This document shows, in pieces, positions 12,717 to 59,699 of a stretch of 64,000 nucleotides of DNA. The stretch's first letter is position 1. Each line of letters begins with the position of its first letter. The stretch covers positions 352,001-416,000 of the forward strand of contig OZ219920.1 of NCBI GenBank assembly GCA_964291415.2. The letters are read 5' to 3'. A program made the position numbers and the translations under genes. Under the pieces are notes generated by a model. It worked only from the letters and a program-made list of their open reading frames with translations, ran no database searches and had not been told where the DNA came from. The stretch comes from Alphaproteobacteria bacterium. GTDB taxonomy: Bacteria > Pseudomonadota > Alphaproteobacteria > SP197.

Positions 12717-12799
12717 GTCGGGAAGTCCGCTGGCCGTACCGCCGTCGATACAGCGGGCCGGACCTGCGTTCAAGCGCATCGCCGGCTCATGAGGGGTGA

Positions 12800-13983: not shown

Positions 13984-13995
13984 CAGGACAATCCC

Positions 13996-14024
13996 CTTGC
14001 AATTCGGTGGAGGCAGGCCTATAT
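13996..14024 (+). promoter_or_regulatory. Sigma70-type promoter divergent from the abi gene
   Basis: CTTGCA(13996-14001)-N17-CTATAT(14019-14024), close to the alphaproteobacterial CTTGAC-N17-CTATAT consensus. Confidence 0.65.
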
Positions 14025-14030
14025 CTGGTC

Positions 14031-14083
14031 ACGGAAACCCCGGTACCGTCTCTGCCCTAGGCACGCGGCCGGGGTAATTTTTT
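14031..14083 (+). ncRNA. Candidate ~53-nt structured small RNA associated with abi
   Basis: Starts about 6 nt after the -10; nested stems ACCCCGG/CCGGGGT, CCGT/GCGG, TGCC/GGCA; followed by a T6 run; no ORF. Confidence 0.55.
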
Positions 14084-14459
14084 GGGGCTCGGCTTCACGG
14101 CGTCCGCGTCCGACGGGCGATTCGACGCGGTGCCGAGCCTCCCGGCGTTGTTCCTTCGCTTCCGTAAAGTCGGTTCGAGCTTCTGGATGCGCTTCACCTG
14201 CCCATCAAGATGGTAGGTGTTGCCGTTCCAGTCCCCGGCCGGGGTTATTCTCAGCTCACGGCGAACCAGGCCTGCTTTCTCGAGTTTTCTGATGCTGTTC
14301 TGAATGGTCTTGTCGGAAACGCTGATCCTTCTGGCGAACTCTTTCCTCGAGGGGACGGCCGACGTTCAGTTTCCTGCCAGTAGTCCAAGAGCTCGATGAG
14401 ATGTTCATCTGCAGCGGACTGCTGCCGAGATGGCTCCGTGCTTGGATCATGAGGTGTGA

Positions 14460-14536
14460 TGGTCGGAGTGGGAGGATTTGAACCTCCGGCCCCTGCCTCC
14501 CGAAGACAGTGCTCTACCAGGCTGAGCTACACTCCG
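14460..14536 (-). tRNA. tRNA-Pro(CGG)
   Basis: CGGAGTGTAGCTCAGCCTGGTAGAGCACTGTCTTCGGGAGGCAGGGGCCGGAGGTTCAAATCCTCCCACTCCGACCA; perfect acceptor stem, CCA end. Confidence 0.97.
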
Positions 14537-14563
14537 CCGACATGGGTCGTCCGCAGAGCCGGC

Positions 14564-14592
14564 CTTATACCGGCTGCCCTGTCAGCCCGCAA
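14564..14592 (-). promoter_or_regulatory. Putative sigma70 promoter of tRNA-Pro
   Basis: TTGCGG-N17-TATAAG on the minus strand, 28 nt upstream of the tRNA. Confidence 0.55.
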
Positions 14593-43617: not shown

Positions 43618-43992
43618 ATGCGAATGCAGACAATGAAGTGGATGGCCGGCACGTTCGTGCTTGTCGGGATTCTCGCCCTTTCCAGTGCAAGTCATGCCTC
43701 CTGCACAGGGGACAACAGGGTCGACATACCGGACGCAAGTTGTCTTTCTGGAAGCCATAGCAACACTTGCTCGTTCAAAGTATTCGGCAAGTGCCTCAGT
43801 TATCAGTCCTCTTTCTGGGCGGAGGCAAAAATCACTTGCGTCCAGAATGGCGACAAGGTCGTCGCGAAAATCGATTTAAAGGATCGAATGGACGAAACGT
43901 GGCATCTGTACAACCACGACACAAATAAGGGTGGGGCAGATACCTATGCCAGGGGCGTCTATTGCTGCAGCGACCTCGGCAGGTGCAACTAA
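43618..43992 (+). CDS. Small secreted cysteine-rich protein (8 Cys), unknown family
   Basis: Sec signal MRMQTMKWMAGTFVLVGILALSSASHA|; mature ~97 aa with 8 Cys ending YCCSDLGRCN; lower GC than flanks; paralog in the window. Confidence 0.8.
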   Translation: MRMQTMKWMAGTFVLVGILALSSASHASCTGDNRVDIPDASCLSGSHSNTCSFKVFGKCLSYQSSFWAEAKITCVQNGDKVVAKIDLKDRMDETWHLYNHDTNKGGADTYARGVYCCSDLGRCN

Positions 43993-44429
43993 CCACAACG
44001 CGTAGCAATGGCGGGCTGGAGTCTTGCGGCCTGGCGGACCAAGTGAAAGCCGAAGAGGATGCCCGCCGCCGCGGAGCGGAGCCGAAACGCAGGCAGGCTC
44101 GGTCGATCGCCGCTCACGATATGCTGGACACACGCAAGCCAGGGTCGTGCCGGCACCAGGATTGTAAGTCGCGAAGTCCGGCGGTTGGTGGTCCCGGGCG
44201 AACGTCAGGTTCGCAGGCGTAGTCCTTGCGCTTCCTCTGCGACGTCGGCGGCTTTGCGGCTGATATCTCCAGGAGCGGGGCTGCCTTCGGCAGACAACTC
44301 AAGGTGGGACGCGACAGCGCAGGCACGCAGCCGTCGCCCGCCGGGGCAGACGCGTCCCGCGACCGACGGCACCGGCTGAGGTTGCCGGGAAGCCGGGGCT
44401 TCGAAAGCGCGAGGATCGGGTGAGCACCA

Positions 44430-46232
44430 ATGGACCGGCATTCATCCAGCGATCCGGGCATGACGCACCAGGAGTCTTTCATCCATGAAAACATCCTGGA
44501 GAACCTGCTCGACGGTGTGATGTCCCTGGGTCTCGACGGCAACGTCAGGACCTTCAACCAGGCGGCCGCCCGCATGCTCGGGCTCGACCGCGACGAGGTG
44601 GTCGGACACACGCTGGTGGAGGTCTTCTTCGCGGTCGAGGGTTTCGAGGCATTCACCCAGGCGATACTCGATGCGGTCGTCGAGCGCAAACGGACGGAAC
44701 GCCGCGTGGTCGAGGTCGGCGGCGACAGCGGACGGCGCGCATTCTCGATGACGACGTCCTACCTGAGGTCTCCCGAGACCGGGGACCCGATCGGCGTGAT
44801 CGCCGTGTTCAGCGACATCACGGAAATGCAGGCGCTCCGCGAGGCCGAGGGCCGAATGGCAAGGGAGCTGGCCGAGCAGAACGCCGAGTTGAAGAACTCG
44901 TACCGGTTGGCGGAAGAAAGACGCGAGCGGCTGGACACGGTGCTGAAGAGGGTCCAGGCCGCGCGGGCTGTGGCGACGGTTCTGGTCATCGCGCTGTTCC
45001 TGGGTGCGGGGGTATGGAGCTGGGGCGGGCTGGAATCGCTCGGGACGCCACAGCCATCCGGCGCCGCAGCGCAGGACGGACAGGAACGTGTGGAAACGCT
45101 CCGCACGGTGACGCTGGCACCCGAAGAATTCACGTCGAAGACATCGCTCATCGGCCGTCTCGTCCCGTCGCGCGAGGTTGCGGTGACGAGCGCCACGGCC
45201 GGCCACATCGCCGAGATTGGCTTCACGTACGGCCAGCGGGTGTCGCAGGGCGAGGTGCTGTTGCGCCTCGACATGGACGAGACCCGGCTTCTGTACCTGG
45301 AAGCGCAGGTCGAGTACGAGAACGCGAAGAAAGCCATCGACGACCTCGACAGGTGGGAGACCGGCACGGAGGTCACCGCCGCGCTCCGGTCGTTGAGCAA
45401 GGCGCAGTTGGCCATGGAAGGCGTGGCCGCCGACTTGAAGCAATCGGCTTTCCTGCTGGACGAGGGTCTCATCCCTGCCTCGCAGCACGAGGACGCCAGG
45501 CGCCGTTACGAGAGCCAGCTGCTCGACCTGGAGGCGGCCCGGCAGAACCTCGACGCGGTGCGGGCCAAGGGCGGAGACGATGCCAGGCGGGTGGCGAACG
45601 TGAACCTCGAAAAGGCGCGCAGCCGCCTGAGCGCCGTAGAGGCCGCGCTCGCGCAGGACACCGTCGTGGCGCCCATCTCCGGCGTGGTCCAGATGCCGGC
45701 CACTCCCGAAGGGACGCTTGTTCGAGGCCTGAGTGTGGAAAAGGGCAACGCGCTGCTGACGATCGCGGACGTCGACCGTCTGGCCGTGTTGGCCCAGATC
45801 GACGAGGTCGAGGTGACGGCGATCCGCCCCGGCCAGCCGGTGACCGTGCAGGGCGACGCCTTTCCCGGCCTGGTGTTGCGCGGCGTGGTGAGTCACGTGT
45901 CCCAGCAACCTCGCGCCTCCAAACCGACCGAGGGCGTGCCGCTGTTCGACGTCACGGTGGGACTCGACGACCTCGGCGAGGCGCAGCGTCTGCAGCTGCG
46001 GATCGGGATGTCGGCGCATCTCCACATCGTCACCTACAGCAGTCCGTCGGCGCTGATGGTTCCGATCGAGGCCGTGGGCGAGAGTGACGGCACGTCGGTG
46101 ATTAGGGTTCTCGACGAGGCCACCGGCGAGGTGCGGCCGCGGGCCGTCGAGGTCGGCTTGACCACACTCGACAAGATCGAGGTGACGGGCGGGCTGAAGG
46201 CCGGCGAGACCGTGGTGCTGGACGGGGCCTGA
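44430..46232 (+). CDS. PAS domain fused to a MacA-type periplasmic adaptor (membrane fusion protein)
   Basis: ILENLLDGVMSLGLDGNVRTFNQAAARMLG...VIAVFSDITE (PAS), coiled coil, one TM, GQRVSQGEVLLRLD, VVAPISGVV, IDEVEV..IRPGQPV, VEVGL....IEVTGGLKAGETV. Confidence 0.88.
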   Translation: MDRHSSSDPGMTHQESFIHENILENLLDGVMSLGLDGNVRTFNQAAARMLGLDRDEVVGHTLVEVFFAVEGFEAFTQAILDAVVERKRTERRVVEVGGDSGRRAFSMTTSYLRSPETGDPIGVIAVFSDITEMQALREAEGRMARELAEQNAELKNSYRLAEERRERLDTVLKRVQAARAVATVLVIALFLGAGVWSWGGLESLGTPQPSGAAAQDGQERVETLRTVTLAPEEFTSKTSLIGRLVPSREVAVTSATAGHIAEIGFTYGQRVSQGEVLLRLDMDETRLLYLEAQVEYENAKKAIDDLDRWETGTEVTAALRSLSKAQLAMEGVAADLKQSAFLLDEGLIPASQHEDARRRYESQLLDLEAARQNLDAVRAKGGDDARRVANVNLEKARSRLSAVEAALAQDTVVAPISGVVQMPATPEGTLVRGLSVEKGNALLTIADVDRLAVLAQIDEVEVTAIRPGQPVTVQGDAFPGLVLRGVVSHVSQQPRASKPTEGVPLFDVTVGLDDLGEAQRLQLRIGMSAHLHIVTYSSPSALMVPIEAVGESDGTSVIRVLDEATGEVRPRAVEVGLTTLDKIEVTGGLKAGETVVLDGA

Positions 46233-46436
46233 CGTGAACACATGGGCGTTTCGGTGGCGGGGCATGTGCAAGGCCTCCATGCCCGGCGCCGTCGAGGATC
46301 CGGCGCGCCGCGGCATCGGCCCGGACGCGGCCGCGGCATACGCGCCGGTGACCGGGAATCCCCCGGGCCTCGGCAATTCCGCATCGGTGTGCGTCCCCGG
46401 GTTCCCTGGCCGGCTACGGCCGGCATTGTCTCTCTC

Positions 46437-47624
46437 ATGAGGATCAATGCATGGGAGGGACTGCGCAGCCTCTCCCGGGCGAAACTGCGATCGGCACTCG
46501 CGCTCACCGGGATCGTGATCGGCGTCGGCTCGGTCATCACGATGATCTCCGTAGGAGAGATCGCCCGAGAAACCTCCCGCGCCCGGTTTGAGGCGCTTGG
46601 AACCGACATCGTCACCATCGGCAATGTCGACGGCGCGAGCATCGCGCCGGGGCGGAGCATCGTTCTCGCCGACGCGCTGCTCCTCGCGGACTCCGTCCCG
46701 TCCATCCTTGAGGCGGCGCCCAGAATCGAGTTGCGCGGCAAGTTCCACTACGCCGGAAGAGAGCTGGACCGGGGCGCCGTTCACGGCGTGACAAGGTCCT
46801 TTGCGCGCCTCAACAAGCTGGAGCTGGCGCAAGGACGGTTCATCTCCCATCTCGATCGACACCGGCACTTCTGCACGGTGGGCGCAGGCGTCGCGGAGGC
46901 CATGCGCCGCGCCGGCGCTACGCGCGTCGTCGGCGAGACCGTTACCATGATGGGCCGATTGTTCACCGTGACCGGCGTGCTTCGCGAGGCGGCCGAGAAC
47001 TACGCGCTGCCGTTCCAGGTCAAGGCGAACAGCTCCGTGTTCATTCCTATTTCCACGGCGCGGCGGATCAGACCCGATATCGGCATCGACGCAATCGTCG
47101 CCCGCACGACTCCCGACATCCACTACGCGCTCGCGACGAGCGAGGTGCTGGAATGGTTCCGCACCCGGCAGGAGAAACTGGAAATCCACGTCACGAGCCC
47201 GACCCAACTCGTCGAGCAACAGGAAGCGCAGATGCGAATCATGACCCTGCTGCTCGCCGCGACCGGCAGTATCTCGCTCATCGTCGGCGGCATCGGGGTG
47301 ATGAACGTCATGCTGGTCTCGGTGACCGAGAGGCGGCAGGAGATCGGCATTCGCCGCGCTCTCGGCGCGCGCCGCCGCGACATCCAGAACCAGTTCCTGG
47401 TGGAGTCCGTGGTCCTGTCCGCGGCCGGCGGTGTTCTCGGAGTCCTGCTCGGTACGGCCGGCACCTGGACGATCTGCCGGTTCACGGAGTGGGACTTCTT
47501 CGTCTCCATGGGCGCGACGGGCAGCGGCCTTGCCGTGTCGTCGGCGATGGGGATAGCGTTCGGACTGCAACCGGCGAACCAGGCGGCGCGGGTCGATCCG
47601 ATCATGGCGCTCCAGGGGCGCTGA
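46437..47624 (+). CDS. MacB/FtsX-type ABC permease
   Basis: LRSALALTGIVIGVGSVI, ISLIVGGIGVMNVMLVSVTERRQEIGIRRALGA, QFLVES, PANQAARVDPI. Confidence 0.92.
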   Translation: MRINAWEGLRSLSRAKLRSALALTGIVIGVGSVITMISVGEIARETSRARFEALGTDIVTIGNVDGASIAPGRSIVLADALLLADSVPSILEAAPRIELRGKFHYAGRELDRGAVHGVTRSFARLNKLELAQGRFISHLDRHRHFCTVGAGVAEAMRRAGATRVVGETVTMMGRLFTVTGVLREAAENYALPFQVKANSSVFIPISTARRIRPDIGIDAIVARTTPDIHYALATSEVLEWFRTRQEKLEIHVTSPTQLVEQQEAQMRIMTLLLAATGSISLIVGGIGVMNVMLVSVTERRQEIGIRRALGARRRDIQNQFLVESVVLSAAGGVLGVLLGTAGTWTICRFTEWDFFVSMGATGSGLAVSSAMGIAFGLQPANQAARVDPIMALQGR

Positions 47625-47642
47625 ACCGGCTGCGCCGGGCGG

Positions 47643-50600
47643 CTACTGGCGGCGGATAGCTGCGCCGTCACCCTTGAAGAGCGACAACGCGAGGCGAAAG
47701 GCGTCACGCCCGATCTGCTCGCCGATCAGGCGCCCCGGAATGTCGTCGGCCGGTGGGTGGATGCCTCCCCAGATACGCGAAAGGCTGCATTGGTCGGCGG
47801 CGTCGCGATAGGTGGCCCATTGCAACTCCATGCCGACCGACGGGCCGCTCTCGAAGACGAGGAAGGTGTCCGCGGGAACCGGGAAGGCGCTCTTGCCTCC
47901 CGGAAAGAAGGGATCGCCGGTCAGCGCGGTCAGCACCTCGGCGGCGGCGCGCGAGAAGGTGGAATGACCGGATACGTATCCTGCGAAGGGTGGCGTCACG
48001 AAGGTCGGGCGCTGGTAGGGCCACCAGTCTTCGGCGCGAATCCAGCCCACGCCGGCCGTGCCGGCCGCTTGCCGGTCGACATGGCCGGGGCCGCGCCAGG
48101 CGAGCAGCTTGACCTTGCCGACATGCTCGCCGTTCTCGCCCGCAAGGAGGTCGCCGGAGCCGATGCGTTCGATAAGCCCCGCCGCCAGCGGGATGCCCCC
48201 TGACGGCTGTCCCGGTGTCTCGGAACCGTCGGACCGGCTGCGGTCGGCCAAGGCCCGGAGCGCCGAGACCGGCCGGATGTAGTCGTACCAGCCCTTGATT
48301 CCCCAGGCGGCAACCGCGGCATCGTGCATCGCCCCGCCCAGGACGAAGTACGCCTTCACGTCCCATTCGAGCCGGTCGAGCACCGGGCCCGTCCCACCGA
48401 GGCGCCTTGCGAGACGTTCATGGTCGCCGACCGCATTCAGGATGGTGAACCAGTGTCCGGGCGGGGTCTCGGAGTCGGGTCCGTCCGCCCAGTACTCGGC
48501 GAGCACCCGGGTATAGTCGCCGCGCGGCACCCACTGAGGCGCATAGGGTTTTCCCGTGGCCGGGTTGATGCGATAGCCGGGGCCCCATGGAACCGGGTCG
48601 TAGAAGTCGGGATAGTCCTCGAACCGGCGCGGCAGGGGGCCGAGATCGCCCATGCCCGAGGGCGCAATGTCGATCAGGACGCCGTCATCGGGCGAGAGAT
48701 GGGACGACCAGCGGGAGACGAGGACAAAGCCCCACTTGTAGTGTTCGGAGAGCGGGCCGTTGAAAGTCGGCGGCGGTCCGGGATCGTGATAAACGTGAAA
48801 TTCCGCGCCGTCGCGCCGGTAGACAGTCAAGTCATCTTCCGACAGGGCGAAGGGCGTGACTTGGCCCCACTCGGGCGACACGAATTGCGCCGCGCCGTCG
48901 AAGGCATGGCCTGACTGGTCGATGTAGCGCGGAAGATCGAGCGGCTGCCAGCGGTTCGGATCCTTGAGCGTGATGTTCCCCGGAATGGACGGCACCAGGG
49001 CCGGATTGACCGGTTCGTAGAACCGGGCCGCGTAGTCGTTGCTCTCGTTCGATCCGTCTTCGAGGCCACGGGCGATATAGAACTCGGCGAGGCAGCGCCC
49101 GAACGCCGCCGCCGGCCCAGCCGCCAAAGCCGGGTCGTGGCCGAGTGCGGACATGAGCGCGTCGGCATTCGCCATGGTCTGCGCTGCGCCCGGCGAGCGT
49201 CGGAAGCGGTGACGCAGGATCTGCAGCGCGGCATGGGACATCGCCTCCTCGCGCGCACGTCGGATATCGCTGTTCGGCGGCGGGCCGGGCCGGGCGCAGG
49301 GCGTGTGGCCGGCGCCGAAATGCCAGGGCTTCGCCTCGTCCGACCAGCCGGCCCAGGCGTCGTACATGGCCCCGGCGACATGGAAGAGGTTCCGCGCGTG
49401 CACGGTCGGGCGGGCCGTGTCGTCCCGGATGGCCTCCAGGAGCACTTCGATCCAGCGTTGCGCCACCGAGACGCTCGCATCGGCCAGGGGTGGGCCCGGC
49501 AGGTAGTGCGGGAACACGCGCGCCGAACCGTGCGGCATGGTGACGGTCGTCCTGGCGGCATTGACGTCGTCGAAGGAAATGCCGCCCTCACCCGTCCAGC
49601 GATGGAAGCTGTGGGTCCCGCGCACCGCCTCGGCTTCTATGGCGACCCGGGAGCCGGCGGCGTGAAGGCCGGTCCCGGCGCCTCCGACGACGGACAGCAG
49701 CTGGCCGGCGGGTTCCGGCTGCCGGACGGTCAGGCGGCGGTTGGCCTGCACGGTCTCGATCCGGGTGACCCGGTTTCCCGGGCCGGGCCAGTCGATCTCG
49801 ATCTCCCGGACTGCCGGATCCGGGCCCAGACCGAAATGCAGTGTCGTCGGGCCCTGTGACAGATAGTTGCCGCCGAGACGCACCTCCTGCACCTGCCGGC
49901 CCGAGTCCGTGTGCACCGTGACCCGGGCGCCAACGGCGAGCGGGTTCGCGTGCCGGCCCTCGAGATCAATGGCCAGCCAGTGATTGTCCGTCTCGAGACC
50001 GTTGCGATAGACCGTCGGCGCCGCGTTGTGATTGGCGATCAGAATGTCGACCCGGCCGTCGCCGTCATAGTCGGCGCAGACCGCGCCACGGCCCTGGCCC
50101 GTGTGGCGGATGCCCAGTTCGGACGCCAGCTCGGTGAAGGTGCCGTCGCCGTTCGCCATGAACAGCCGGGAGGGATCGTCGACGAATCCGGCGTACCTGT
50201 GGACATACTCTTCCGCCAGGCCGTAGTGGCCGGGCTCGGTCACGCCGTAGCCGTTGGTATGGAAGATGTCGACATGGCCGTCGCTGTCAAAATCGGCGAA
50301 ACAGGCTCCCCATCCCCAGCCGCCCTCCCGGACCCCGGCCGCGTCCGTCGCATCCTCGAACCGGCCGTCACCGCGATTTCGGTAGAGCCGGTTGCCCGTC
50401 GGCCCTTCTCCCGACCGGCCTTCCGGATCGTGAATGCTGGTCACGAACCAGTCCATGTCGCCGTCGCGGTCGAAGTCCGCGACCGCCGCTCCCATGCCGT
50501 TCTCGTCGGTGATGACCGCATCGCGGATGTCGACGAAGCGCCTGCCGCCTTCGTTGCGCAGGACCTGGCCGGTCCCGAAGTCGCCCGCCAGCAGGATGTC

Positions 50601-51383
50601 CGGGTAGCCGTCGCCGTTGATATCGCTGAAGGTCGGGGTAAAGGACACTTCGAGTGGCGTTGTCAGGCCCGGTTGTTGGACGGCGCGGATCGGCACGATA
50701 TCGGTGATGTCCTCGAATCGCCCCCGGCCGTCGTTGCGCCAGAGATAGTGGAAGGGCGCGTTGAGTCCATCCGAGAGCTTGCCCCATTGGGCAAAGAACA
50801 GGTCCAGATCGCCGTCGCGGTCGAAGTCGCCCGCGGTCATGGAGTAAAGATCGCTCTTGGCGGAGACCGACGGCAAGGGGTCGGGCATCTCCGCGAAGCG
50901 CCCGCTGCCGTCATTGCGGAACGCCTGCGCGCCGTGTCGGTGGATGGACAGGAAGTCCAGCGCGCCGTCGTCGTCGAGATCGACAAAATACCCGGCCCGG
51001 TCCGGCGCCGTCGGGTCGATACCGCCGTTGTCGAAGCGCGCCACGAACTGCCGGCCGTCCCAGGAGAACAGCCGGCCGGGCTCGTCTCCCCCGGTCGCAA
51101 CATAGAGTTCGGGCTTGCGGTCGCCGTCAATATCGACAAGGGCCAGTCCGCCGTCTACCAGCCGGGCGGCAGTCTCCCAGTCGTCGTAGGGTTCGACCGG
51201 ACGCACCACATAGGCCAGACCGACTGTCCCGGTAACGTCGACAAAACGGCCGCCCCGGTCCGCAGCGGCCGCGGACGGCGCCACGTCTGCCGGCGCATCA
51301 GCCATCGCCAGCATGACCACGAGGCAGGCAGACGCGACGAACGCGCGACACAGAGACTGCGGCACTTGAAGCGATGGTGTCAT
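47643..51383 (-). CDS. Secreted FG-GAP/ASPIC-UnbV (CRTAC1-like) protein fused to a vanadium-dependent haloperoxidase (PAP2-superfamily) domain
   Basis: Repeated DxDxDGxxD motifs, GGNYLSQ...LHFGLG...IEIDWP; C-terminal WGIKGWYDYIRP, TPPFAGYVSGHSTFS, SRIWGGIH. Confidence 0.88.
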   Translation of the reverse strand: MTPSLQVPQSLCRAFVASACLVVMLAMADAPADVAPSAAAADRGGRFVDVTGTVGLAYVVRPVEPYDDWETAARLVDGGLALVDIDGDRKPELYVATGGDEPGRLFSWDGRQFVARFDNGGIDPTAPDRAGYFVDLDDDGALDFLSIHRHGAQAFRNDGSGRFAEMPDPLPSVSAKSDLYSMTAGDFDRDGDLDLFFAQWGKLSDGLNAPFHYLWRNDGRGRFEDITDIVPIRAVQQPGLTTPLEVSFTPTFSDINGDGYPDILLAGDFGTGQVLRNEGGRRFVDIRDAVITDENGMGAAVADFDRDGDMDWFVTSIHDPEGRSGEGPTGNRLYRNRGDGRFEDATDAAGVREGGWGWGACFADFDSDGHVDIFHTNGYGVTEPGHYGLAEEYVHRYAGFVDDPSRLFMANGDGTFTELASELGIRHTGQGRGAVCADYDGDGRVDILIANHNAAPTVYRNGLETDNHWLAIDLEGRHANPLAVGARVTVHTDSGRQVQEVRLGGNYLSQGPTTLHFGLGPDPAVREIEIDWPGPGNRVTRIETVQANRRLTVRQPEPAGQLLSVVGGAGTGLHAAGSRVAIEAEAVRGTHSFHRWTGEGGISFDDVNAARTTVTMPHGSARVFPHYLPGPPLADASVSVAQRWIEVLLEAIRDDTARPTVHARNLFHVAGAMYDAWAGWSDEAKPWHFGAGHTPCARPGPPPNSDIRRAREEAMSHAALQILRHRFRRSPGAAQTMANADALMSALGHDPALAAGPAAAFGRCLAEFYIARGLEDGSNESNDYAARFYEPVNPALVPSIPGNITLKDPNRWQPLDLPRYIDQSGHAFDGAAQFVSPEWGQVTPFALSEDDLTVYRRDGAEFHVYHDPGPPPTFNGPLSEHYKWGFVLVSRWSSHLSPDDGVLIDIAPSGMGDLGPLPRRFEDYPDFYDPVPWGPGYRINPATGKPYAPQWVPRGDYTRVLAEYWADGPDSETPPGHWFTILNAVGDHERLARRLGGTGPVLDRLEWDVKAYFVLGGAMHDAAVAAWGIKGWYDYIRPVSALRALADRSRSDGSETPGQPSGGIPLAAGLIERIGSGDLLAGENGEHVGKVKLLAWRGPGHVDRQAAGTAGVGWIRAEDWWPYQRPTFVTPPFAGYVSGHSTFSRAAAEVLTALTGDPFFPGGKSAFPVPADTFLVFESGPSVGMELQWATYRDAADQCSLSRIWGGIHPPADDIPGRLIGEQIGRDAFRLALSLFKGDGAAIRRQ

Positions 51384-51819
51384 GGAATGCCCGGCGCTGG
51401 CGGTATGCGGATGAACCGGCCATCGAAGCGTCGGTCCGGCATGAAGTCCATCGCCTGCGCCTCGTTCCGCACCACCACCTGGCGCGATACGGGCGATTCC
51501 GGCTGGCGACGGGACGACATTGGCGACAACTTCAATCAGTCCCTGTCTCCTGAACACACAATTGCGCTGACTTTGCTGAAGTGCATGGACAACGGTCGGC
51601 CACCATTCAGCATGCGGCGTTGCGACTCAGCGTTGTGACGTTCATGGTCGGCGCGCAGATGTGGTTGAACGCCGTCGTCGCGCCATTCAACAGCGTTCAA
51701 CCGACGGGAGCCTGGCCATTCCGGCGCGGTTCCATGGCAGCCGACGGCGCCGGGACCGTCTCCGGTTACCGCCCTCCCCGCCTGACCAGGACTGTCCATC
51801 CCGTCGATTCTGCGCGTCC

Positions 51820-52177
51820 GTTGCACCGGCCAAGCTCGTCGCATCAACAAACGCCCCTGACTCTCTTGAAAACCGAGCCCTTTCTCATGGCGTAGTCTTG
51901 CCGATGTCACGTCTTGTCGCTTTCGCCGACGATGTCGACTTTTGCGACCACGTTGTCCGCGAATTGGCTGTCCGCCTCGTACGCGGAAGAACAGGTGACG
52001 CCACTTCCGAACATTCTGCCGGTTCACTTGTTGCTCCAACTTCCATCCAGACAGCCTGCTTCACCGAGACCAAGTCCGTTGCTCCCTGTGCACGAGGCAC
52101 GGCCTGCACCGGTCATGGCCAGGACTCCAAAACAACGCGAGGGCGCCAACTGCTCATTTCATGGGTTGCGTTCGCAC
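51820..52177 (-). pseudogene. Pseudogene paralog of the 43618 Cys-rich secreted protein
   Basis: VRTQPMK*AVGALALF/fs/GVLAMTGAGRASCTGSNGLGLGEAGCLDGSWSNK*...NVVAKVDIVGESDKT*H...VRGVC*CDELGRCN aligns end to end with 43618-43992. Confidence 0.85.
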
Positions 52178-52864
52178 ATTTGCTCGCTCTCACATGTCAT
52201 GGCCGGCATGACCTGGGTGGCATCGGAGTCTCTCAATTTCGGCTCAATGTTCTGTGCAAGTCAACGTTAACTCATGAAAATGATCGGAAAAAAATCGGCA
52301 GTAGTTTCGAGGATTTTGCGATGCAGGAATTGACTGCAACTGAAGCAAAATCAGACTACACATTTGTGCAGATCGTCCTGCAAACAACGCTCGTTGCACG
52401 CGGCGACCTGCCCGCGCATCCTGCCTTCCTGGCCGGACCCCGGCATATCGGACACAGGGCGGGGAAACGGGAATGCGAACGCAATCGGGCATGCGGACCG
52501 GGCCCATATCAGGGCGTGGCATTCGTAGGCGCGCCGGCTCGGCCCGCTTTCCCCGGTCCCGTCTCGGTGACCGTTTGGCCTTGCCCCCCGGTCCCGCCTT
52601 GCCTTCAGTCTCCAGCATTTCGCCGCGCCGCCCGGTGAGGTTGCCGCGGGAACGCCGCAGGCCTGCTTCGTCATGGCCGACGCCCAGAGCATGGCCGCCG
52701 GCCCGGGGGTGCAGGCGTGTCCTCTGCCGACGCCGCAAGGGCCCAGGCCAGTCGGAGAACTCCGCGCCCGGTGGAGTCCTTCAGGCGGCGGGGCCCGCCC
52801 GGCCCGTCTCTCTGTCCGGTGTGCCGCGTCGGGGATGGAGCGCAGCGGCCGGTTCGACGTCTTC

Positions 52865-54259
52865 ATGAGGGCGCGGCATGCGGGTCCCTGCGCGCTGTGG
52901 CTTGCACTCGCCTGCCTGGCGGGGCCGGCGGGAGCGCAGACGGGCGGGCCGGAGCGCCTCGACCTCTCGCTGGAGGAGGCGGTGTGGCTGGCACTCACGA
53001 GGAGCCGGTCGGCGATCCAGGCCCGGCTCGAGCGGGAGGAGCAGCAGCTCGCGCTGGAAGGCGCGGAGGAACGATACGATCCGATGGCGGACCTGAGCCT
53101 GGAGACGACCGCCGCAAGCCGGAACGACGAGACGGCGGAATTCTCCATCGGGCCGAGCCTGCGGGTGCCGACCGGCGGTTCCTTCCGACTTTCCATCAAC
53201 AAGCCGCTCGCTGGCGAGCGCGACCGCGGGGCGAGCACGACGCTCACGTTCTCGCAGCCGCTGCTCAGAGACTTCGGGCCGGAACTCGACACCCAGCCGG
53301 TCCGCGAGGCGCGGCTGCAGGAGCGGATCAACCTGCATGCCTTCCGAGACACCGCGGCCGGCATCGTGGACTCGGCCGTCTCCGCCTATCGCGGCGTACT
53401 GCGGGCGCGGCAACAGACGGTCATTGCGCGCGAGGCGCTGGAGCGGGCGCGGCGGCAGCTCGAGACCAACCGCGCCCTGGTCGAGGCGGGCCGCATGGCC
53501 TCGCAGGACCTCGTGCAGTCCGAGGCCGACGTTGCCGACAAGGAATACGCGCTGATCGACGCCGAGAGCGCGCTGGAGACCGCGATGTCACACCTCGTCA
53601 ATACGCTCGACCTTGAAGAAGGGGTGCGAGTCGAGCCGCAGGCGGAGCTGCCCGTACAGCCCGAGCGGCCTGACCTCGTGGAGAGCCTGGAGACGGCCTT
53701 CGCCCGGCGCACGGACTGGCTCAGCGCCAAGATCGGGGTGGATCTGGCGCGCATGGTCCTGCACCGCGCGGAAAACGCGCTCCTGCCGGACCTCAGCCTG
53801 AACGGGCAGGTCGACCATCTGACCGGGACCGACCGCATGCACTGGACGGTCGGGCTGAAGCTGACGGTTCAACTCCACAATGACGAGTCCCGGCGGGCGC
53901 TGACGCGGGCGCGCAACAGCCTCCTGCGGGCAGAGATGGCGCTCGCCGAGCAGCGCCAGTCGATCCGCATCCAGGTGCGCCAGGCGGTGGAGAATGTGGC
54001 GGTGGCGCTGCGCCAGATTGACCTTGCGCGCCAGGCGCGGGAACTGGCCGAGCAGAAACTCGACGTGGAGCGCCGCAAGCTGCAGCAAGGCCTTTCCTCC
54101 GCGTTCCAGCTCGGTCGCTTCGAGGACGACATGGTGGCGGCGCAGAGGCGCGAGCTGGACGCGGTGGCCCGCTACCGGGATTCGCTCGCCGGCCTCGACC
54201 GGTCGCTCGGCACGACGCTGGACCGGTGGGGCATCAATGTGGAGCAGGTCGGACAGTGA
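52865..54259 (+). CDS. TolC-family outer membrane efflux protein
   Basis: Signal peptide, LSLEEAVWLAL, FSQPLLRDFG, LLPDLSL, AEQKLDVERRKLQQGLSS. Confidence 0.88.
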   Translation: MRARHAGPCALWLALACLAGPAGAQTGGPERLDLSLEEAVWLALTRSRSAIQARLEREEQQLALEGAEERYDPMADLSLETTAASRNDETAEFSIGPSLRVPTGGSFRLSINKPLAGERDRGASTTLTFSQPLLRDFGPELDTQPVREARLQERINLHAFRDTAAGIVDSAVSAYRGVLRARQQTVIAREALERARRQLETNRALVEAGRMASQDLVQSEADVADKEYALIDAESALETAMSHLVNTLDLEEGVRVEPQAELPVQPERPDLVESLETAFARRTDWLSAKIGVDLARMVLHRAENALLPDLSLNGQVDHLTGTDRMHWTVGLKLTVQLHNDESRRALTRARNSLLRAEMALAEQRQSIRIQVRQAVENVAVALRQIDLARQARELAEQKLDVERRKLQQGLSSAFQLGRFEDDMVAAQRRELDAVARYRDSLAGLDRSLGTTLDRWGINVEQVGQ

Positions 54260-54333
54260 CCGGGCCAGGCATCCGCCGCGAAAGCCTAGAAGCGGTCGAG
54301 ATCGTGCTGGTTCCGGGGAGTTGAACACGGGCG

Positions 54334-55032
54334 ATGCTGGAACTTGTCGACATCCGCAAGACCTTCCGCCTCGGGCCAGTGGAGGTCGAGGTGCTGAAGG
54401 GCATCGACCTCCGTGTGGAAGCGGGCGATCTCATGTCGATCATGGGGCCTTCGGGCAGCGGCAAGTCCACGCTGATGAACATACTTGGGCTGCTGGGCCG
54501 CCCGACCTCGGGATCCTACCGGCTCAACGGGCGCGATGTCTCGACCATGAACGACCGGGAGCTCTCCGCCTTCCGCAACGAGAACATCGGCTTCGTGTTC
54601 CAGTCCTTCAACTTGCTGGGGCACCTGACGGCGCTGGAGAACGTGTCCCTGCCATTGGTCTATCGGGACTCGGACCGGCGCGGCGCACGTCGCCGGGCGG
54701 TGAACATACTGGAGAAGGTCGGCATGGCGGACCGGCTGGACCACAGGCCGGACCAGCTGTCCGGCGGGCAGAAACAGCGGGTGGCGATCGCGCGGGCGCT
54801 GGTGGGGACGCCGTCCGCCGTGTTGGCGGACGAGCCGACCGGCGCTCTCGATTCCGACACCGCCGAGGAGGTGATGCACCTGCTGATCCGCCTCAACTGC
54901 GAGGAGCGGGTCGCCGTGGTCATCATCACCCATGATCCGGCGGTTTCCCTGCAATGCCGGCGCCGGGCGCTGATCCGCGACGGCTCGCTGCTCGAAGAGG
55001 CTGGCGAAGCACGGGAAACCGGCGCGGCATGA
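54334..55032 (+). CDS. MacB/LolD-type ABC ATP-binding protein
   Basis: GPSGSGKST, GFVFQSFNL, LSGGQKQRVAIARAL, LADEPTGALD. Confidence 0.95.
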   Translation: MLELVDIRKTFRLGPVEVEVLKGIDLRVEAGDLMSIMGPSGSGKSTLMNILGLLGRPTSGSYRLNGRDVSTMNDRELSAFRNENIGFVFQSFNLLGHLTALENVSLPLVYRDSDRRGARRRAVNILEKVGMADRLDHRPDQLSGGQKQRVAIARALVGTPSAVLADEPTGALDSDTAEEVMHLLIRLNCEERVAVVIITHDPAVSLQCRRRALIRDGSLLEEAGEARETGAA

Positions 55033-55185
55033 AGCATGCGATCCAGGCGGCTGCTTTGGCCTCCAGCCCGTACACCCGGCCGGGGGCCTCGATTCCGTCG
55101 CCGTCCCGCAAGGCAATCGAAGCGCCCGCAACCTGAGAGCCGGCGCGAAGTCCGCGCGCCGGCAAGATGAAAGGAAGTTCAGATC

Positions 55186-55935
55186 ATGAAATGCCCTCTC
55201 GTGGCGGCCCTGGTCGCGTTGGCGCTCCTGGCGCCCCTTGCGGCGGTGGCCCACCCCGGTCACGGCGCGAACCCGGACAAGGGCGCAATCGAACGGATTG
55301 TCCGCGACTACCTGCTGAGCAACCCCGAGGTGATCGAGGAGGCCATCGACGTCCTTCGGGTGAAACGCCAGGCGGAAGAGCGCAAACGCGCTGAAGCCGC
55401 CATAGCCCGCAACCTCGAGGCGCTGCGCTCGCATCCGATGTCGCCCGTCTCCGGCAACGCCGCGGGCGACGTCACCGTCGTCGAGTTCTTCGACTATCGC
55501 TGCGGCTTCTGCAAGCGCGCGCTGCCGGCGATGGAGGCGCTGCTGGAGGAGGACGCGAACGTGCGCGTTGTCTGGAAGGAGTTCCCGATCCTCGGCCCCG
55601 TCTCGGAGTTCGCCGCACGCGCAGCCATGGCGGCCGACCGGCAGGGCAAGTACTACCCCTTCCACCTCGCGCTGATGAAGGAGCCGGAGCTCACCGAAGG
55701 CCGTGTGCTGGAGATCGCCGTGAAAGCCGGGCTCGACCCCGAGCGGCTCCGCCAGGACATGGAGGACCCGGCGATCGCGGCCTACCTCGACGAAACCCGC
55801 GCCCTGGCGCAGGAGATCGGAATCACCGGCACGCCGGCGTTCGTGGTCGGCGGTACGCTGGTTCCGGGCGTCATCGATGCCGCCGGCATGAAGGCCCTCG
55901 TCGACGCAGCGCGCACGGCCGGCAATGCGGGATGA
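55186..55935 (+). CDS. DsbA-family thiol-disulfide oxidoreductase
   Basis: Signal peptide, VRDYLLSNPEVI, EFFDYRCGFCK (CxxC), KEFPILG, GITGTPAF (cis-Pro). Confidence 0.92.
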   Translation: MKCPLVAALVALALLAPLAAVAHPGHGANPDKGAIERIVRDYLLSNPEVIEEAIDVLRVKRQAEERKRAEAAIARNLEALRSHPMSPVSGNAAGDVTVVEFFDYRCGFCKRALPAMEALLEEDANVRVVWKEFPILGPVSEFAARAAMAADRQGKYYPFHLALMKEPELTEGRVLEIAVKAGLDPERLRQDMEDPAIAAYLDETRALAQEIGITGTPAFVVGGTLVPGVIDAAGMKALVDAARTAGNAG

Positions 55936-55948
55936 GGGAGCGGCCGAC

Positions 55949-56653
55949 ATGAAAATCGAAACGCGCCAGTCGGGTTCTACCGTGATCGTCGTTCCTTCCG
56001 GGCGGCTGGACGGCATTGGCGCGCCGGACGTTGAAGACCAACTCGTCGCCGCTGCAAAGCGGCACCGGGGCTGCGTGGTGCTGGACTGCCGCGCCATCGT
56101 ATACATCAGCAGCGCGGGGCTCCGCGCGCTGCTCCTCGGCGCAAAGGCCTGCGCGCGGGAAGGCGGCGAACTCACTGTTGCCGCGCTCCAGCCAAACTGC
56201 CGGACGGTCATGGAGGCGAGCGGGCTGCTGTCCGTGCTCCAATACACCGAAACCGTGGAGGCCACGTCCAAGGGAGCCCGCCGCCCGCGTCGAAGGCCAG
56301 TGCGCGACGCCATGGAAGTCGGGGAACGGCGCGAGGCGCATGCGGTCGTCCTCTCGCCGGTCGGCCAGCTGGACAGCGACAGTGCTCCCCTCCTGTTGAA
56401 GAGGATCGGCGACGCCATCGAGAGCGGAGATACGCGCGTGGTGCTGGATTGCGCTGGTGTGAGCTATGTCAACAGTGCCGGCCTGCGCGCCCTGCTGATC
56501 GGCGCCAAGCAATGCCGCAAGGCAGGCGGGAATCTCGTCATCGCCGCGCTTGCGCCGCAGTGCCGTTCGGTCATGGAGATGAGCGGCTTTCTCACGATCA
56601 TCGACTATTGGGAGACCTCCGAAGCCGCCGTCGTCGCGCTCGCCAGCGAATGA
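55949..56653 (+). CDS. Tandem STAS (anti-sigma-factor antagonist) protein
   Basis: Two repeats: GRLD...VVLDC..IVYISSAGLRALL and GQLD...VVLDCAGVSYVNSAGLRALL. Confidence 0.88.
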   Translation: MKIETRQSGSTVIVVPSGRLDGIGAPDVEDQLVAAAKRHRGCVVLDCRAIVYISSAGLRALLLGAKACAREGGELTVAALQPNCRTVMEASGLLSVLQYTETVEATSKGARRPRRRPVRDAMEVGERREAHAVVLSPVGQLDSDSAPLLLKRIGDAIESGDTRVVLDCAGVSYVNSAGLRALLIGAKQCRKAGGNLVIAALAPQCRSVMEMSGFLTIIDYWETSEAAVVALASE

Positions 56654-56806
56654 AGTCGAAACCGTCAACGGCGGCGGATCAGTGTCCTGCACGGAGCGTT
56701 CACGGCGCAAGCATGGCGTGCGCAGACGGCGCAAGGAGGCACCATCACAGGAAAAAGCCCAGCACGACGGCAACCACCAGCCCCGCTCCCGTCGCGATGA
56801 CGCCGT

Positions 56807-57581
56807 GCGAGGTTGCGGTGACGAGCGCCACGGCCGGCCACATCGCCGAGATTGGCTTCACGTGCGGCCAGCGGGTGTCGCAGGGCGAGGTGCTGTTGCG
56901 CCTCGACATGGACGAGACCCGGCTTCTGTACCTGGAAGCGCAGGTCGAGTACGAGAACGCGAAGAAAGCCATCGACGACCTCGACAGGTGGGAGACCGGC
57001 ACGGAGGTCACCGCCGCGCTCCGGTCGTTGAGCAAGGCGCAGTTGGCCATGGAAGGCGTGGCCGCCGACTTGAAGCAATCGGCTTTCCTGCTGGACGAGG
57101 GTCTCGTCCCTGCCTCGCAGCACGAGGACGCCAGGCGCCGTTACGAGAGCCAGCTGCTCGACCTGGAGGCGGCCCGGCAGAACCTCGACGCGGTGCGGGC
57201 CAAGGGCGGAGACGATGCCAGGCGGGTGGCGAACGTGAACCTCGAAAAGGCGCGCAGCCGCCTGAGCGCCGTCGAGGCCGCGCTCGCGCAGGACACCGTC
57301 GTGGCGCCCATCTCCGGCGTGGTCCAGATGCCGGCCACTCCCGAAGGGACGCTTGTTCGCGGCCTGAGTGTGGAAAAGGGCAACGCGCTGCTGACGATCG
57401 CGGACGTCGACCGTCTGGCCGTGTTGGCCCAGATCGACGAGGTCGAGGTGACGGCGATCCGCCCCGGCCAGCCGGTGACCGTGCAGGGCGACGCCTTTCC
57501 CGACCTGGTGCTGCGCGGCGTGGTGCGTCACGTGTCCCAGCAACCTCGCGCCTCCAAGCCGACCGGGGGCGTGCCGCTGTT
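56807..57581 (+). repeat. 775-bp near-identical internal copy of the adaptor gene (45172-45946); truncated pseudogene
   Basis: Colinear at offset 11635 with about nine substitutions seen by eye; lacks PAS, TM and C-terminus. Confidence 0.95.
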
Positions 57582-59358
57582 TACGTTGAACAATCGTACG
57601 GATCGAGGATGGAAGCTGCGGTTCAGGACCCGGGACGACAATGTGGGTCGAAGCCCAACCGCAACAGCAGGTACCGACTATGACGATGTCCATGAAAAGG
57701 CTGGCACTGCTGACAATTGGAGCGAGCTGATCTTTGAGCAGGGAGTAATCACCAAAGTGGTTTCGATCGACACCCATGCCGACGCACAGGGCGACGATGG
57801 CGAGTGGTTCGCAGTCAAGTTTGTCAACCATGAAGACAACGCAGGACGGATCGTGTTCGGGTAAACCGGTTCCGACTGGACCACCCGAGTCAAGATCACC
57901 AACGACGGCCCGATGCCGAAGGCGTGGCTTGCGCGCTTCGGGCGCACGGTGGCCGAGCAGGCCATCGAGGCGGTGGAGGCGCGGTTCGATGCGTGGCGCG
58001 AGGCCGGGTTCACGGGGACGCTTGCGGGCCAGCCGCTCGGCGGCGGCGCCGAGGGCGAGGAGCCGGTACCCGAGGCGGACGCGGCGCGCGGCCTCGGGAC
58101 GCTCTCCGGGTGGCTGCGGGGCGAGACGGACGAAGAGGACGCCAACGGCTTCGTCGAGGGCACGATGGGCCCGGGCGAGCTGCTCGCGAGCTCGTCCTTC
58201 TCGCTGACCCGGGGCACGGCGGAGACGGGCTTCGCTTCCGTGTGGGGCCGGGGCGCGGTGACGCGCTTCGACGGGCGCGACGGCGCGCTCGCGGTCGACG
58301 GCGAGGTGGCGAGCGCGATGGTCGGCGCGGACTTCTCGCGCGATGCGCTGCTGGCCGGGCTGATGCTCTCGCACAGCCGGGGCGAGGGCGGCTACCGCGA
58401 CGGCTCGGGCGGCGGCACGGTGGAGTCGACGCTGACCGCGCTCTTCCCCTACGCGCGCTACGCGCTCACCGAACGGCTGTCGGTGTGGGGGATGATGGGC
58501 TACGGCGAAGGGACGCTGACGCCCGAGGGACAGGCGGCGCTTCGCCTCGACATGGACTTCGCGATGGGTGCGTTCGGGGTGCGCTCGGTGCTGCTCGACG
58601 GCGGCGCGGACGGGGCGACGCTCACAGCGAAGTCGGACGCGTTCGCCGTGCGCACGGGCACCGATGCGGTGTCGGGACCGGACGGGAAGCTCGAGGCGGC
58701 CGAGGCCGATGTGACGCGCGTGCGTCTCGCGCTCGAAGGGTCGCGTCCGCTGCACTTGAGCGAGACGGTGGTGCTGACGCCGAGCCTCGAGCTCGGGGTG
58801 CGCCGCGACGGAGGCGATGCGGAGACCGGCTTCGGGACGGACATCGGGGCGGGGCTCGCGCTGTCGGACCCCGCGCGGGGCCTGAGCGCGGAGATCCGCG
58901 TGCGGGGGCTGCTGACCCACGAGGACGAGGGACTGAGCGAGCGGGGCCTCTCCGGCACGCTCGCCTTCGATCCCGCGCCCGAGTCCGGGCGTGGCTTGAG
59001 CCTGAGCCTCACCCAGACCGTGGGCGCGGAGACCTGGGGCGGCGCGGAGGCGCTGCTCGAGCGCACCACGCTTGCGGGGCTCGGCGCGGAGGAGGACGAC
59101 AGCCTCTCGGCCCGGCGCCTCGATGCGCGCGTCGGCTACGGCTTCGCCGTGTTCGACGATCGCTACACGGCCACGCCCGAGCTTGGGCTCGGTCTCTCCG
59201 ACAGCGGCCGCCAGCTCCTTCTCGGCTGGCGGCTTACCGAGCGCCTCTCCGCGGGGTTCGCCTTCGGTTTCGGTATCAAGGGGACGCTGCGCGAGGCGGC
59301 GAACGACGATGCCCCGCTCGGGACCGGCATCGGGCTGCGGCTCAGCGCGTCCTGGTGA
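57582..59358 (+). pseudogene. Truncated autotransporter: Calx-beta-like passenger fragment, in-frame TAA (57862-57864), intact beta-barrel ORF 57913-59358
   Basis: TATAGTDY...LIFEQGVITKVVSIDTHAD...GEWF.V*...ITNDGPMPKAWLARFGRTVAEQ; VWGRG, LTPSLELGVRRDGGDAETG, terminal W. Confidence 0.75.
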
Positions 59359-59394
59359 GGCGGCGGCGTGGAGGCAGGGACCGGGGACCGCCCT

Positions 59395-59699
59395 GCGGCA
59401 GCTCTGATCGACCGCCTGGTCCATCACTGCCACATCGTCAACATCCGCGGGAACAGCTATCGCATGCGCGATCATCAGAACCTGCTGCAAGCCAGCGCCG
59501 AGCGGCGCCGGAAGAAGGACGGATCATGATCGCCGCCGCCAACAAAGACTTCGGTGCGAGCCGCCCGCTGTGGATAACTGGCCCCCCGCCGCCAGACTCG
59601 TGGCGGTCGCTGCGGCGGGCCAGTTACCCACAGCTCAACCGAGCCACAGTGAGAGATTTTCGATCGGCGAAAGTGTGCAATTTTCAGTCGGCATTGACA
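59395..59699 (+). mobile_element. IS21-family right end: istB C-terminal remnant and terminal repeat
   Basis: ALIDRLVHHCHIVNIRGNSYRMR; end ...GATTTTCGATCGGCGAAAGTGTGCAATTTTCAGTCGGCATTGACA with internal repeats and a CA terminus. Confidence 0.8.

Follow-up and report, generated by a model that had tools for sequence, protein, structure and literature searches.

A putative MacB-type/TolC export route with a PAS-fused adaptor for a rare family of cysteine-rich secreted proteins

The stretch of DNA analysed here (the window, 64,000 nucleotides of contig OZ219920.1 from an alphaproteobacterial genome) carries a cluster at 43618-59529 in which the gene for a small cysteine-rich protein with a Sec signal segment lies beside genes of a tripartite pump. 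The core domain of this protein, here called D1, recurs in other bacteria, where it is often joined to a second cysteine-rich module, D2. In our preferred reading, to which we give a probability of about 0.6, disulfide-stabilized proteins of the D1 family are exported by Sec and then leave the cell via a dedicated MacB-type/TolC pump whose adaptor carries a PAS domain; they would serve as binding modules outside the cell, and the cluster in the window would have been acquired horizontally and have partly decayed. Comparative genomics argues for the dedicated route. A first-pass annotation of the same sequence had suggested a dedicated pathway for a secreted cysteine-rich family, and this part of the suggestion gained support from eight loci that link family and pump, from fusions of the same module to predicted outer-membrane barrels and from the lack of a secretin in the genome. 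Its view of the family as defensin- or toxin-like, and of DsbA and STAS proteins as core components, did not hold up.

Linkage of D1/D2 genes to PAS-adaptor pumps and to predicted barrels

Loci were collected from both sides of the proposed partnership. Cargo-first searches yielded 3 genome loci and 15 metagenome loci, which were compared with the window proteins by tblastn. Pump-first searches, with the adaptor as sole query, yielded 8 loci not already found through the cargo, and six-frame translations of these were scanned with hidden Markov models (HMMs) built from the family alignment and from its D1 columns. Barrel-less D1/D2 genes were found beside PAS-adaptor pumps at eight loci, in alphaproteobacterial genomes, one metagenome contig and one cyanobacterium (Table 1). 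The cargo-first loci pairing barrel-less D1 genes with the pump were the window, L001, L003 and L004, while four of the 8 pump-first loci (L021, L029, L030 and L032) carried D1/D2 genes within a few kilobases (kb). For the D2-repeat protein of L021, hhalign gave a probability of 89% and an E-value of 2.2e-6. At L001 the cluster continues with FG-GAP, STAS, DsbA and ABC genes, and TolC lies further on (L040). Across lineages the common core consisted of TolC, PAS-adaptor, ABC ATPase and permease together with D1/D2 genes.

Both partners are rare. Among the other 32 genomes from the window's family, 2 had a full-length PAS-adaptor; it was present in 3 genomes of a sample of 400 from the class and in 2 of a sample of 400 from the phylum, these last two belonging to one genus. 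The genomes behind L001, L002 and L003 hold 3, 1 and 2 copies, respectively. D1 was found in none of the 32 other family genomes (1 of 33 with the window). Given the rarity of D1 and the linkage at four of the eight pump-first loci, chance adjacency is very unlikely.

The same module also occurs fused to a predicted barrel. At 11 of the 15 metagenome loci (L005, L007-L011 and L013-L017, of which L014 and L015 appear to be one sequence), the D1 gene precedes a homolog of the window open reading frame (ORF) at 57913-59358, which encodes a predicted barrel; at L006, L012 and L018 the sequence is too short or breaks off with the contig. Reading L013 in full revealed two tandem genes, each a single ORF (809 and 829 residues; one at 7237-9666), that run from a signal peptide through D1, D2, a Calx-beta domain and a helix ('AWIARFGRTV...') and close with a long, beta-rich C-terminal domain whose last residue is F; the barrel domains of D1-D2 relatives end in an aromatic residue (F or W). 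This C-terminal domain had no Pfam autotransporter match even at E<=5 and no PDB sequence match. Its model, of low confidence (pLDDT, the predicted local distance difference test, 48.9), had a helix at residues 3-30 and, after it, some 19 long strands, and every significant Foldseek match of the model was an outer-membrane barrel, of many kinds (best E 1.1e-6), with EspP appearing at ranks 34 and 39 only. On the basis of this model the relatives of about 800 residues are described here only as autotransporter-like. No pump genes were detected at any barrel-fused locus by tblastn with the window proteins. Since the module is either fused to a barrel or barrel-less beside a TolC pump, the pump is best explained as the means of crossing the outer membrane. 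Two alternative exits thus seem to serve one extracellular module, in support of the pump as its exporter. The first-pass annotation would have counted peptide homologs independent of the pump against its reading; this objection applies in part, as such homologs do exist, as autotransporter-like passengers and as one D1-D2 pair (L002), and four PAS-adaptor pumps lack the family.

Table 1. Coordinates and supporting matches of the window's cluster and of the loci compared with it
Locus	Feature	Position	Strand	Details
Window	Short-form D1 protein, proposed cargo	43618-43992	+	124 residues, 8 Cys; ORF, homologs, AlphaFold2 model
Window	Membrane-fusion adaptor with N-terminal cytoplasmic PAS	44430-46232	+	Pfam PAS_4/PAS residues 20-132; HlyD_3/HlyD_D23 248-513
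Window	MacB-type permease, no ATPase domain	46242-47624	+	Pfam MacB_PCD 1.1e-29 (104.6 bits, cut-off 27), FtsX 1.8e-18
Window	1304-residue FG-GAP/ASPIC and vanadium-haloperoxidase-like protein	47643-51557	-	Pfam FG-GAP_3, UnbV_ASPIC, VCPO_2nd
Window	Decayed D1 paralog (pseudogene)	51820-52128	-	tblastn 38% identity over 108 residues, E 5e-17
Window	TolC-family outer-membrane channel	52673-54259	+	Pfam OEP 6.6e-35; NCBIfam type_I_sec_TolC 4.9e-23
Window	Stand-alone 232-residue ABC ATPase, MacB/LolD/DevA type	54334-55032	+	Pfam ABC_tran
Window	Periplasmic DsbA-family thiol-disulfide oxidoreductase with ScsC N-domain	55186-55935	+	Pfam DSBA 5.3e-27, ScsC_N 2.5e-13
Window	Tandem STAS-STAS protein	55925-56653	+	Pfam STAS, two matches
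Window	781-bp duplicate of adaptor-gene segment 45166-45946	56801-57581	+	blastn 98.6% identity, 11 mismatches; direct repeat
Window	Remnant of D1-D2-Calx-beta-barrel gene	57583-59358	+	tblastn against L013 ORF
Window	IS21 IstB fragment, right edge of island	59368-59529	+	Pfam IstB_IS21 3.4e-09, C-terminal 28 residues only
L001	Three tandem D1 genes, one frameshifted			Thalassobaculaceae metagenome-assembled genome; adaptor and permease about 80% identity
L003	202-residue D1-D2 gene, divergent from TolC-PAS-adaptor-ABC-permease			Aphanocapsa feldmannii (cyanobacterium)
L004	Two D1-D2 genes, then TolC-PAS-adaptor-ABC-permease			Metagenome contig
L021	285-residue secreted protein, three D2 repeats, no D1	6247-7104	+	Congener of window's organism; 19 Cys; E 1.7e-16
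L029	Diverged D1-D2 gene, divergent from TolC			Genome of L002; E 2.7e-17
L030	Two D1-D2 genes			E 2.7e-70, 3.1e-64
L032	Two family genes			Second cyanobacterial locus; E 3e-42, 3.1e-19
L001	FG-GAP homolog	14588-18355		80% identity
L029	FG-GAP homolog	3775-7326		61% identity
L030	FG-GAP homolog	11802-15539		64% identity

The D1 family and the components of the pump

The D1 protein begins with a predicted hydrophobic signal peptide of about 27 residues (1-27; cleavage between SSASHA and SC), and the signal segment is kept in its homologs. Scans against Pfam and NCBIfam returned zero matches for the 124-residue protein, and when 66 family members were scanned against Pfam no D1 or D2 family was matched, Calx-beta alone being found, in 2 of the 66. 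A word-indexed search retrieved six close proteins, including the window's own, in which 8 of 8 cysteines and the motifs KVVAKI, TWH and YCC.DLG.C are invariant, and an exhaustive phmmer search retrieved 68 cluster representatives at E<=1e-3 among 1.84 billion. The core of D1 spans about 95 residues with six family-wide cysteines (C29, C42, C74, C116, C117 and C123), C51 and C59 being extra cysteines of the window's subgroup. Many members have 190-230 residues and carry D2 as well, and a few reach 300-800. In the literature searched, no account was found of D1/D2 proteins or of adaptors that combine a PAS fusion with a cargo of this kind. From these sequence comparisons D1 is taken to be a rare, undescribed modular family, and the cargo was filed as a new family.

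AlphaFold2, run on the family alignment, gave an all-beta D1 model with a mean pLDDT of 86.6, and of 94-98 across most of the mature part. Foldseek found 0 matches to this model in the PDB at E<=0.001, and a search of the ESM Atlas gave no usable match. In an exhaustive VIA-align comparison the top match was tendamistat (Z 5.3, root-mean-square deviation 3.2 A over 65 residues), followed by generic Ig-like sandwich domains at Z 4-5; by the tool's own note, a Z in this range may reflect merely a common arrangement. The model thus represents D1 as a small Ig-like beta-sandwich with no close solved or recognizable relative; the first-pass annotation, too, did not recognize the cargo family. The size and fold of D1 do not match a defensin, and the toxin-like label fares no better for an Ig-like sandwich of some 95 residues placed at the tip of adhesin-like autotransporters. 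D1 looks like a binding module. D1/D2 modules most likely act outside the cell, where they would serve sponge-associated bacteria in binding or adhesion.

The HASC sequence at the end of the signal peptide was also considered as a lipoprotein site and rejected. Across the wider family the A-x-A site is followed by the first cysteine at +1 to +3, a varying distance, and position -3, at which a lipobox typically has Leu, is H, D, N, Y or Q and never Leu.

All genes that the first-pass annotation had listed for cargo, adaptor, permease, TolC, ATPase, DsbA and STAS-STAS were recovered in place as ORFs with Pfam or NCBIfam support, except that the cargo matched no family. The adaptor matched NCBIfam RND_mfp at 7.9e-42 (143.3 bits against a cut-off of 94.9) and is laid out as a PAS domain, a transmembrane stretch read from the sequence and HlyD domains; the HlyD_3, HlyD_D23 and OEP matches exceed the Pfam cut-offs, so that an adaptor of the HlyD family and a duct of the TolC family are present. 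Pfam confirmed the PAS fusion in the window, L003 and L004, and at the other loci it is implied by adaptor alignments that start near residues 1-22. By residue count the adaptor has no cysteine, from which a LOV-type photocycle of its PAS domain would be excluded. The permease has the four-transmembrane FtsX domain and the large periplasmic core domain of MacB (Table 1) and matches the C-terminal part of MacB (NCBIfam, 1.8e-50). Distant homologs align with it only from about residue 57-72, so that translation may begin at the internal ATG at 46437; the likely start of TolC is near 52835.

Unlike in E. coli MacB, the ATPase is not fused to the N-terminus of the permease but forms a separate ORF in the other gene block. 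Its NCBIfam matches were to the N-terminal part of MacB (1.7e-76), LolD (9.5e-72), DarD (7.8e-64) and DevA (3.3e-56). The MacB equivalog model divides between permease and ATPase, with scores of 171.9 and 257.9 bits where the cut-off is 966, and all NCBIfam MacA and MacB equivalog scores fall far under their cut-offs. By sequence we assign the pump to the MacB-type tripartite pumps; its layout is split, like that of DevCA, and its PAS-adaptor is novel. The window holds one complete tripartite pump, as the first-pass annotation had it, and the genome only one further MacB_PCD gene. The secretin profile (PF00263) had no match in the genome, which is 100% complete by markers, while control genomes were positive; the type II pathway is thus not available.

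Proposed export route and competing explanations

In the proposed route, D1 would reach the periplasm through Sec and have its signal peptide removed by signal peptidase I. Disulfides would then form in the periplasm, where in the window's lineage the linked ScsC-type DsbA may help, and the folded protein would enter the pump from the periplasmic side, via the MacB-type permease with its separate ATPase, the PAS-fused adaptor and TolC. The pump would expel D1 across the outer membrane in the manner of MacAB-TolC with STII and of Aat with dispersin, whereas barrel-bearing relatives of the module would need no pump. According to PMC5985334, MacB has no transmembrane substrate path and takes its substrates in the periplasm, MacAB-TolC exports STII from there after Sec transport and oxidation by DsbA, and Aat exports the 10-kDa dispersin. 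The cytoplasmic PAS domain of the adaptor probably gates ATPase and pump activity on a cytoplasmic signal. Deletion of the cytoplasmic N-terminus of DevB is described as stopping export while the pump stays assembled (PMC5985334), and by analogy a regulatory role for the PAS domain is plausible.

The candidate system shares features with several known ones, as these are outlined in PMC5985334. With MacAB-TolC and STII of E. coli it has in common a MacB_PCD/FtsX permease, an HlyD-type adaptor, a TolC duct and a cargo that bears a Sec signal and is predicted to be disulfide-bonded, STII being taken from the periplasm; it differs in that the ATPase is separate, the adaptor has a cytoplasmic PAS domain, the pump genes adjoin the proposed cargo, and the cargo is of a new family with about 97-250 mature residues and 6-19 cysteines. 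Closer in genetic layout are AatPABCD with dispersin and CexPABC with CexE of pathogenic E. coli, in which a MacB-type pump is encoded together with its own Sec-dependent, beta-rich surface protein of about 10 kDa (PMC5985334). Here, unlike in Aat and Cex, the cargo is cysteine-rich and unrelated in sequence, and the adaptor carries PAS. Among the ORFs of 43.6-59.4 kb there was no AatD-type acyltransferase or AatC, the long ORFs all being otherwise assigned, although no model specific to AatD or AatC was used. DevBCA-HgdD, the glycolipid exporter of heterocyst-forming cyanobacteria, also has split permease and ATPase, an adaptor and a TolC homolog (PMC5985334), and pumps related to the window's likewise occur in a cyanobacterium (L003 and L032). 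However, the DevB model TIGR02971 scored 44.9 bits against a cut-off of 129 and the DevA model TIGR02982 190.3 against 295.8, and the neighbour of the pump is a gene for a secreted protein, with no glycolipid synthesis genes nearby. The order of passenger, linker helix and C-terminal barrel in the related loci resembles type Va autotransporters, from which they differ by the lack of a Pfam autotransporter match and by about 19 strands instead of 12 in a low-confidence model; the short form in the window has no barrel at all. Type I substrates have a C-terminal or double-glycine signal in place of a Sec signal and are taken from the cytoplasm; this class does not fit, as the proposed cargo has an N-terminal signal segment and the permease is MacB-type, not a six-transmembrane ABC exporter. 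Tendamistat, too, is a small all-beta sandwich, but its identity to D1 is 17%, its cysteine pattern is another and the Z-score lies within the range of chance.

Several observations weigh against a dedicated D1/D2 exporter. The HMM scan found no D1/D2 gene beside the PAS-adaptor pumps of L022, L031, L038 and L039 (the L038 contig stops 115 bases beyond its tolC match). At L002 a barrel-less D1-D2 pair lies amid housekeeping genes with no pump within 10 kb; the pump of that genome is on another contig, L029, with its own divergent D1-D2 gene. The window and L001 loci are close relatives (about 80% identity) and hence not independent. The long forms, with about 175-250 mature residues and 12-19 cysteines, are well above 10 kDa, the largest MacB-type substrate in the account of PMC5985334, and the passage of folded proteins through TolC is hypothetical. 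Finally, gene adjacency would also be compatible with co-regulation of D1/D2 genes and a pump that exports something else.

This last possibility is the strongest competitor, though we consider it unlikely: the pump would export a non-protein substrate, for instance a glycolipid, or a metabolite that the FG-GAP/haloperoxidase-like protein produces or alters, and D1/D2 proteins would merely be co-regulated with it and use another exit or stay in the periplasm. Such a role would suit the split permease and ATPase, a layout that matches DevCA (PMC5985334), as well as the four PAS-adaptor pump loci without D1/D2, the FG-GAP/VCPO-like gene kept by the pump at four loci and the apparent bulk of the long-form cargos relative to the TolC duct. 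It sits poorly, on the other hand, with the low DevB score and with the lack of lipid or polyketide biosynthesis genes in the window cluster. The barrel-fused relatives speak for a module that acts extracellularly, the genome lacks a secretin that could serve as another exit, and the cyanobacterial and L004 loci keep the pairing of D1/D2 with the pump without any FG-GAP gene.

We consider it improbable that D1/D2 proteins are toxic or antimicrobial and that the pump is mainly a self-protection exporter clearing the producer's periplasm, with release as a by-product. MacB-family pumps do confer resistance to peptide antibiotics such as bacitracin and colistin (PMC5985334), the best, though weak, structural match of D1 is a secreted inhibitor, tendamistat, and D1/D2 genes are often multicopy and variable; but the sandwich is a generic Ig-like one with no match to a toxin or bacteriocin family, the module stands at the tip of Calx-beta autotransporter-like proteins in an adhesin-like layout, and no separate immunity gene was evident among the window ORFs. 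Still less probable is that D1 belongs to the pump itself instead of being its substrate, as an accessory with a structural or regulatory role, for example a lipoprotein or a subunit located in the periplasm or at the outer membrane. The repeated tight adjacency of D1 to adaptor or TolC genes and the invariance of HASC at the end of the signal peptide in the six closest members would be expected of such a subunit, but the spacing of the first cysteine and the residues at position -3 speak against a lipobox. An accessory is also difficult to reconcile with 1-3 D1/D2 copies per locus, with domain make-up varying from D1 to D1-D2 to three D2 repeats, with four pumps that have no D1/D2, and with the use of the module as an autotransporter-like passenger.

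Beyond export of D1/D2 through the dedicated pump, a wider proposal can be put forward only tentatively, and we hold it to be rather doubtful: that PAS-adaptor pumps are a distinct, PAS-gated pathway for folded multi-disulfide, multi-domain proteins of up to about 250 residues, which secretin-less sponge-associated bacteria of at least two phyla use interchangeably with autotransporter barrels to deploy host- or matrix-binding D1/D2 proteins. 

A dedicated pump family with recurrent cargo would broaden the known range of MacB-type transporters, whose known protein substrates are few (STII, dispersin and CexE) and all of 10 kDa or less. By comparison, the proposed cargo extends to several domains locked by disulfides, and a sensor domain is part of the adaptor. 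The natural swap of barrel and pump around one module offers a clean test of how folded proteins cross the outer membrane. With their concentration in sponge-derived material, D1/D2 proteins are candidate symbiosis factors, in adhesion or host-matrix binding, and D1 itself is a new, confidently modelled small fold open to structural work.

Decay, origin and neighbouring genes of the island

In its present state the window cluster has four intact pump genes and one intact D1 gene, while a second D1 paralog and the autotransporter-type gene are pseudogenes. Together, the D1 pseudogene and the decapitated barrel gene show an island in decay. The paralog, which lies upstream of the FG-GAP gene and points away from tolC, heads the second gene block divergently, as first described. 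It has three in-frame TGA codons, aligned to C51, W95 and C116, and its signal-peptide part as read from the sequence contains a frameshift and a further TGA. Genome G034 has no copy of the paralog for comparison. A tRNA-Sec gene (anticodon tca) is located outside the window (G000, C1:1063305-1063400), so that selenocysteine may be in use in this organism, and two of the TGA codons align with Cys. A reading of these codons as selenocysteine was nevertheless rejected, since one aligns with an invariant Trp, a frameshift is present and no hairpins resembling selenocysteine insertion sequences follow them, the 55-nucleotide stretches after the three TGA codons folding no better than shuffles (z +0.61, -0.96 and +1.65).

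Just downstream of the STAS gene, the 781-bp duplicate of the adaptor gene replaces the 5' part of the autotransporter-type gene. A contig from run X1, which is probably the source sample, bridges the 3' junction of the duplicate (57528-57945) with 0 differences. The remnant beyond it aligns in one frame with residues 232-807 of the L013 ORF (46% identity, E 2e-126) and retains a partial Calx-beta domain, the linker helix and the barrel, with one in-frame stop and without signal peptide, D1 or D2. The duplication, the decapitated gene and the FG-GAP/haloperoxidase-like gene had been missed in the first-pass annotation. The whole region is flanked by genes for an OppC-type permease and BipA. 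Between the former and the D1 gene, the segment 41800-43450 has a lower guanine-plus-cytosine content (0.61) and no intact genes; its translations resemble transposase debris by eye, and its three long ORFs had no Pfam match.

We infer horizontal acquisition of the cluster because D1 and tandem STAS are absent from 32 family relatives, because an insertion-sequence fragment lies at its flank and because the best pump relatives (about 80% identity) sit in a genome outside the window's own family set. Near-identical pieces of the cluster were present in sponge-metagenome-labelled runs of two studies distinct from the probable source, X4 (DNA) and X2 (an RNA library). Records from X4 showed 0-1 differences over 170-269 nucleotides. 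Contigs from X2 covered the adaptor (2 differences in 392 nucleotides), the permease (0 in 241), the ATPase (2 in 414) and also the FG-GAP gene; as DNA carry-over is possible, they cannot prove transcription. The D1 gene appeared in X2 at low depth only, as a variant contig, and we make no RNA claim for it. The D1/D2 family as a whole is concentrated in sponge-metagenome-labelled material and one cyanobacterial genome, that of A. feldmannii, which we take to be a sponge symbiont.

Among the accessory genes, DsbA was found near the pump at 3 loci (the window, L001/L040 and, 6 kb away, L004) and tandem STAS at 2 (the window and L001/L040), so both are regarded as lineage-specific extras, not as core. 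DsbA, taken in the first-pass annotation for a dedicated disulfide catalyst, has an ScsC-type N-domain, which points to an isomerase type. A thioredoxin-like (seleno)lipoprotein model gave a further, weak match to this DsbA (E 5.6e-11, under the cut-off). About 600 bases downstream of the D1-D2 pair of L002, an ORF (11196-11690, +) resembles by eye a DsbB-type membrane protein. Tandem STAS proteins are far commoner than D1 (152 clusters at E<=1e-10), although none occurs in the 32 family relatives, where all matches span a single domain. When STAS-STAS was considered as a partner that binds the ATPase dimer in the way of MlaB, complex prediction gave a score of 0.00 and a mark of 0.32, which is evidence neither for nor against. 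Single-domain STAS genes lie 1.7 kb from the PAS-adaptor gene at L039 (7111-7419, +) and about 6.4 kb away at L022 (17579-17962, -); these genomes are unrelated, and the genes may hint at a recurring STAS-pump link.

The FG-GAP/VCPO-like gene is kept beside the pump at four alphaproteobacterial loci (the window, L001, L029 and L030). A D1 gene lies directly upstream of it on the same strand at L029, L030 and the window, where it is the pseudogene. Neither the cyanobacterial loci nor L004 have the FG-GAP gene, although D1/D2 genes adjoin the pump there too.

Two of the pumps without D1/D2 genes adjoin small Sec-signal proteins with 4-6 cysteines, of 168 residues at L022 (6823-7329, -) and 161 residues at L031 (12117-12602, +). 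Neither has a family match, and a heuristic scan gave no such candidate at L038 or L039. They may be alternative cargos or a coincidence, such proteins being common. At L004 the permease is directly followed by an HTTM-domain gene (14016-14984, +; vitamin-K-dependent gamma-carboxylase-like, E 2.2e-68). Downstream of the D1-D2 gene of L003 lies a gene for a protein of more than 820 residues made of fibronectin type III repeats (10805-13264, +), which is likely another surface or host-interaction protein.

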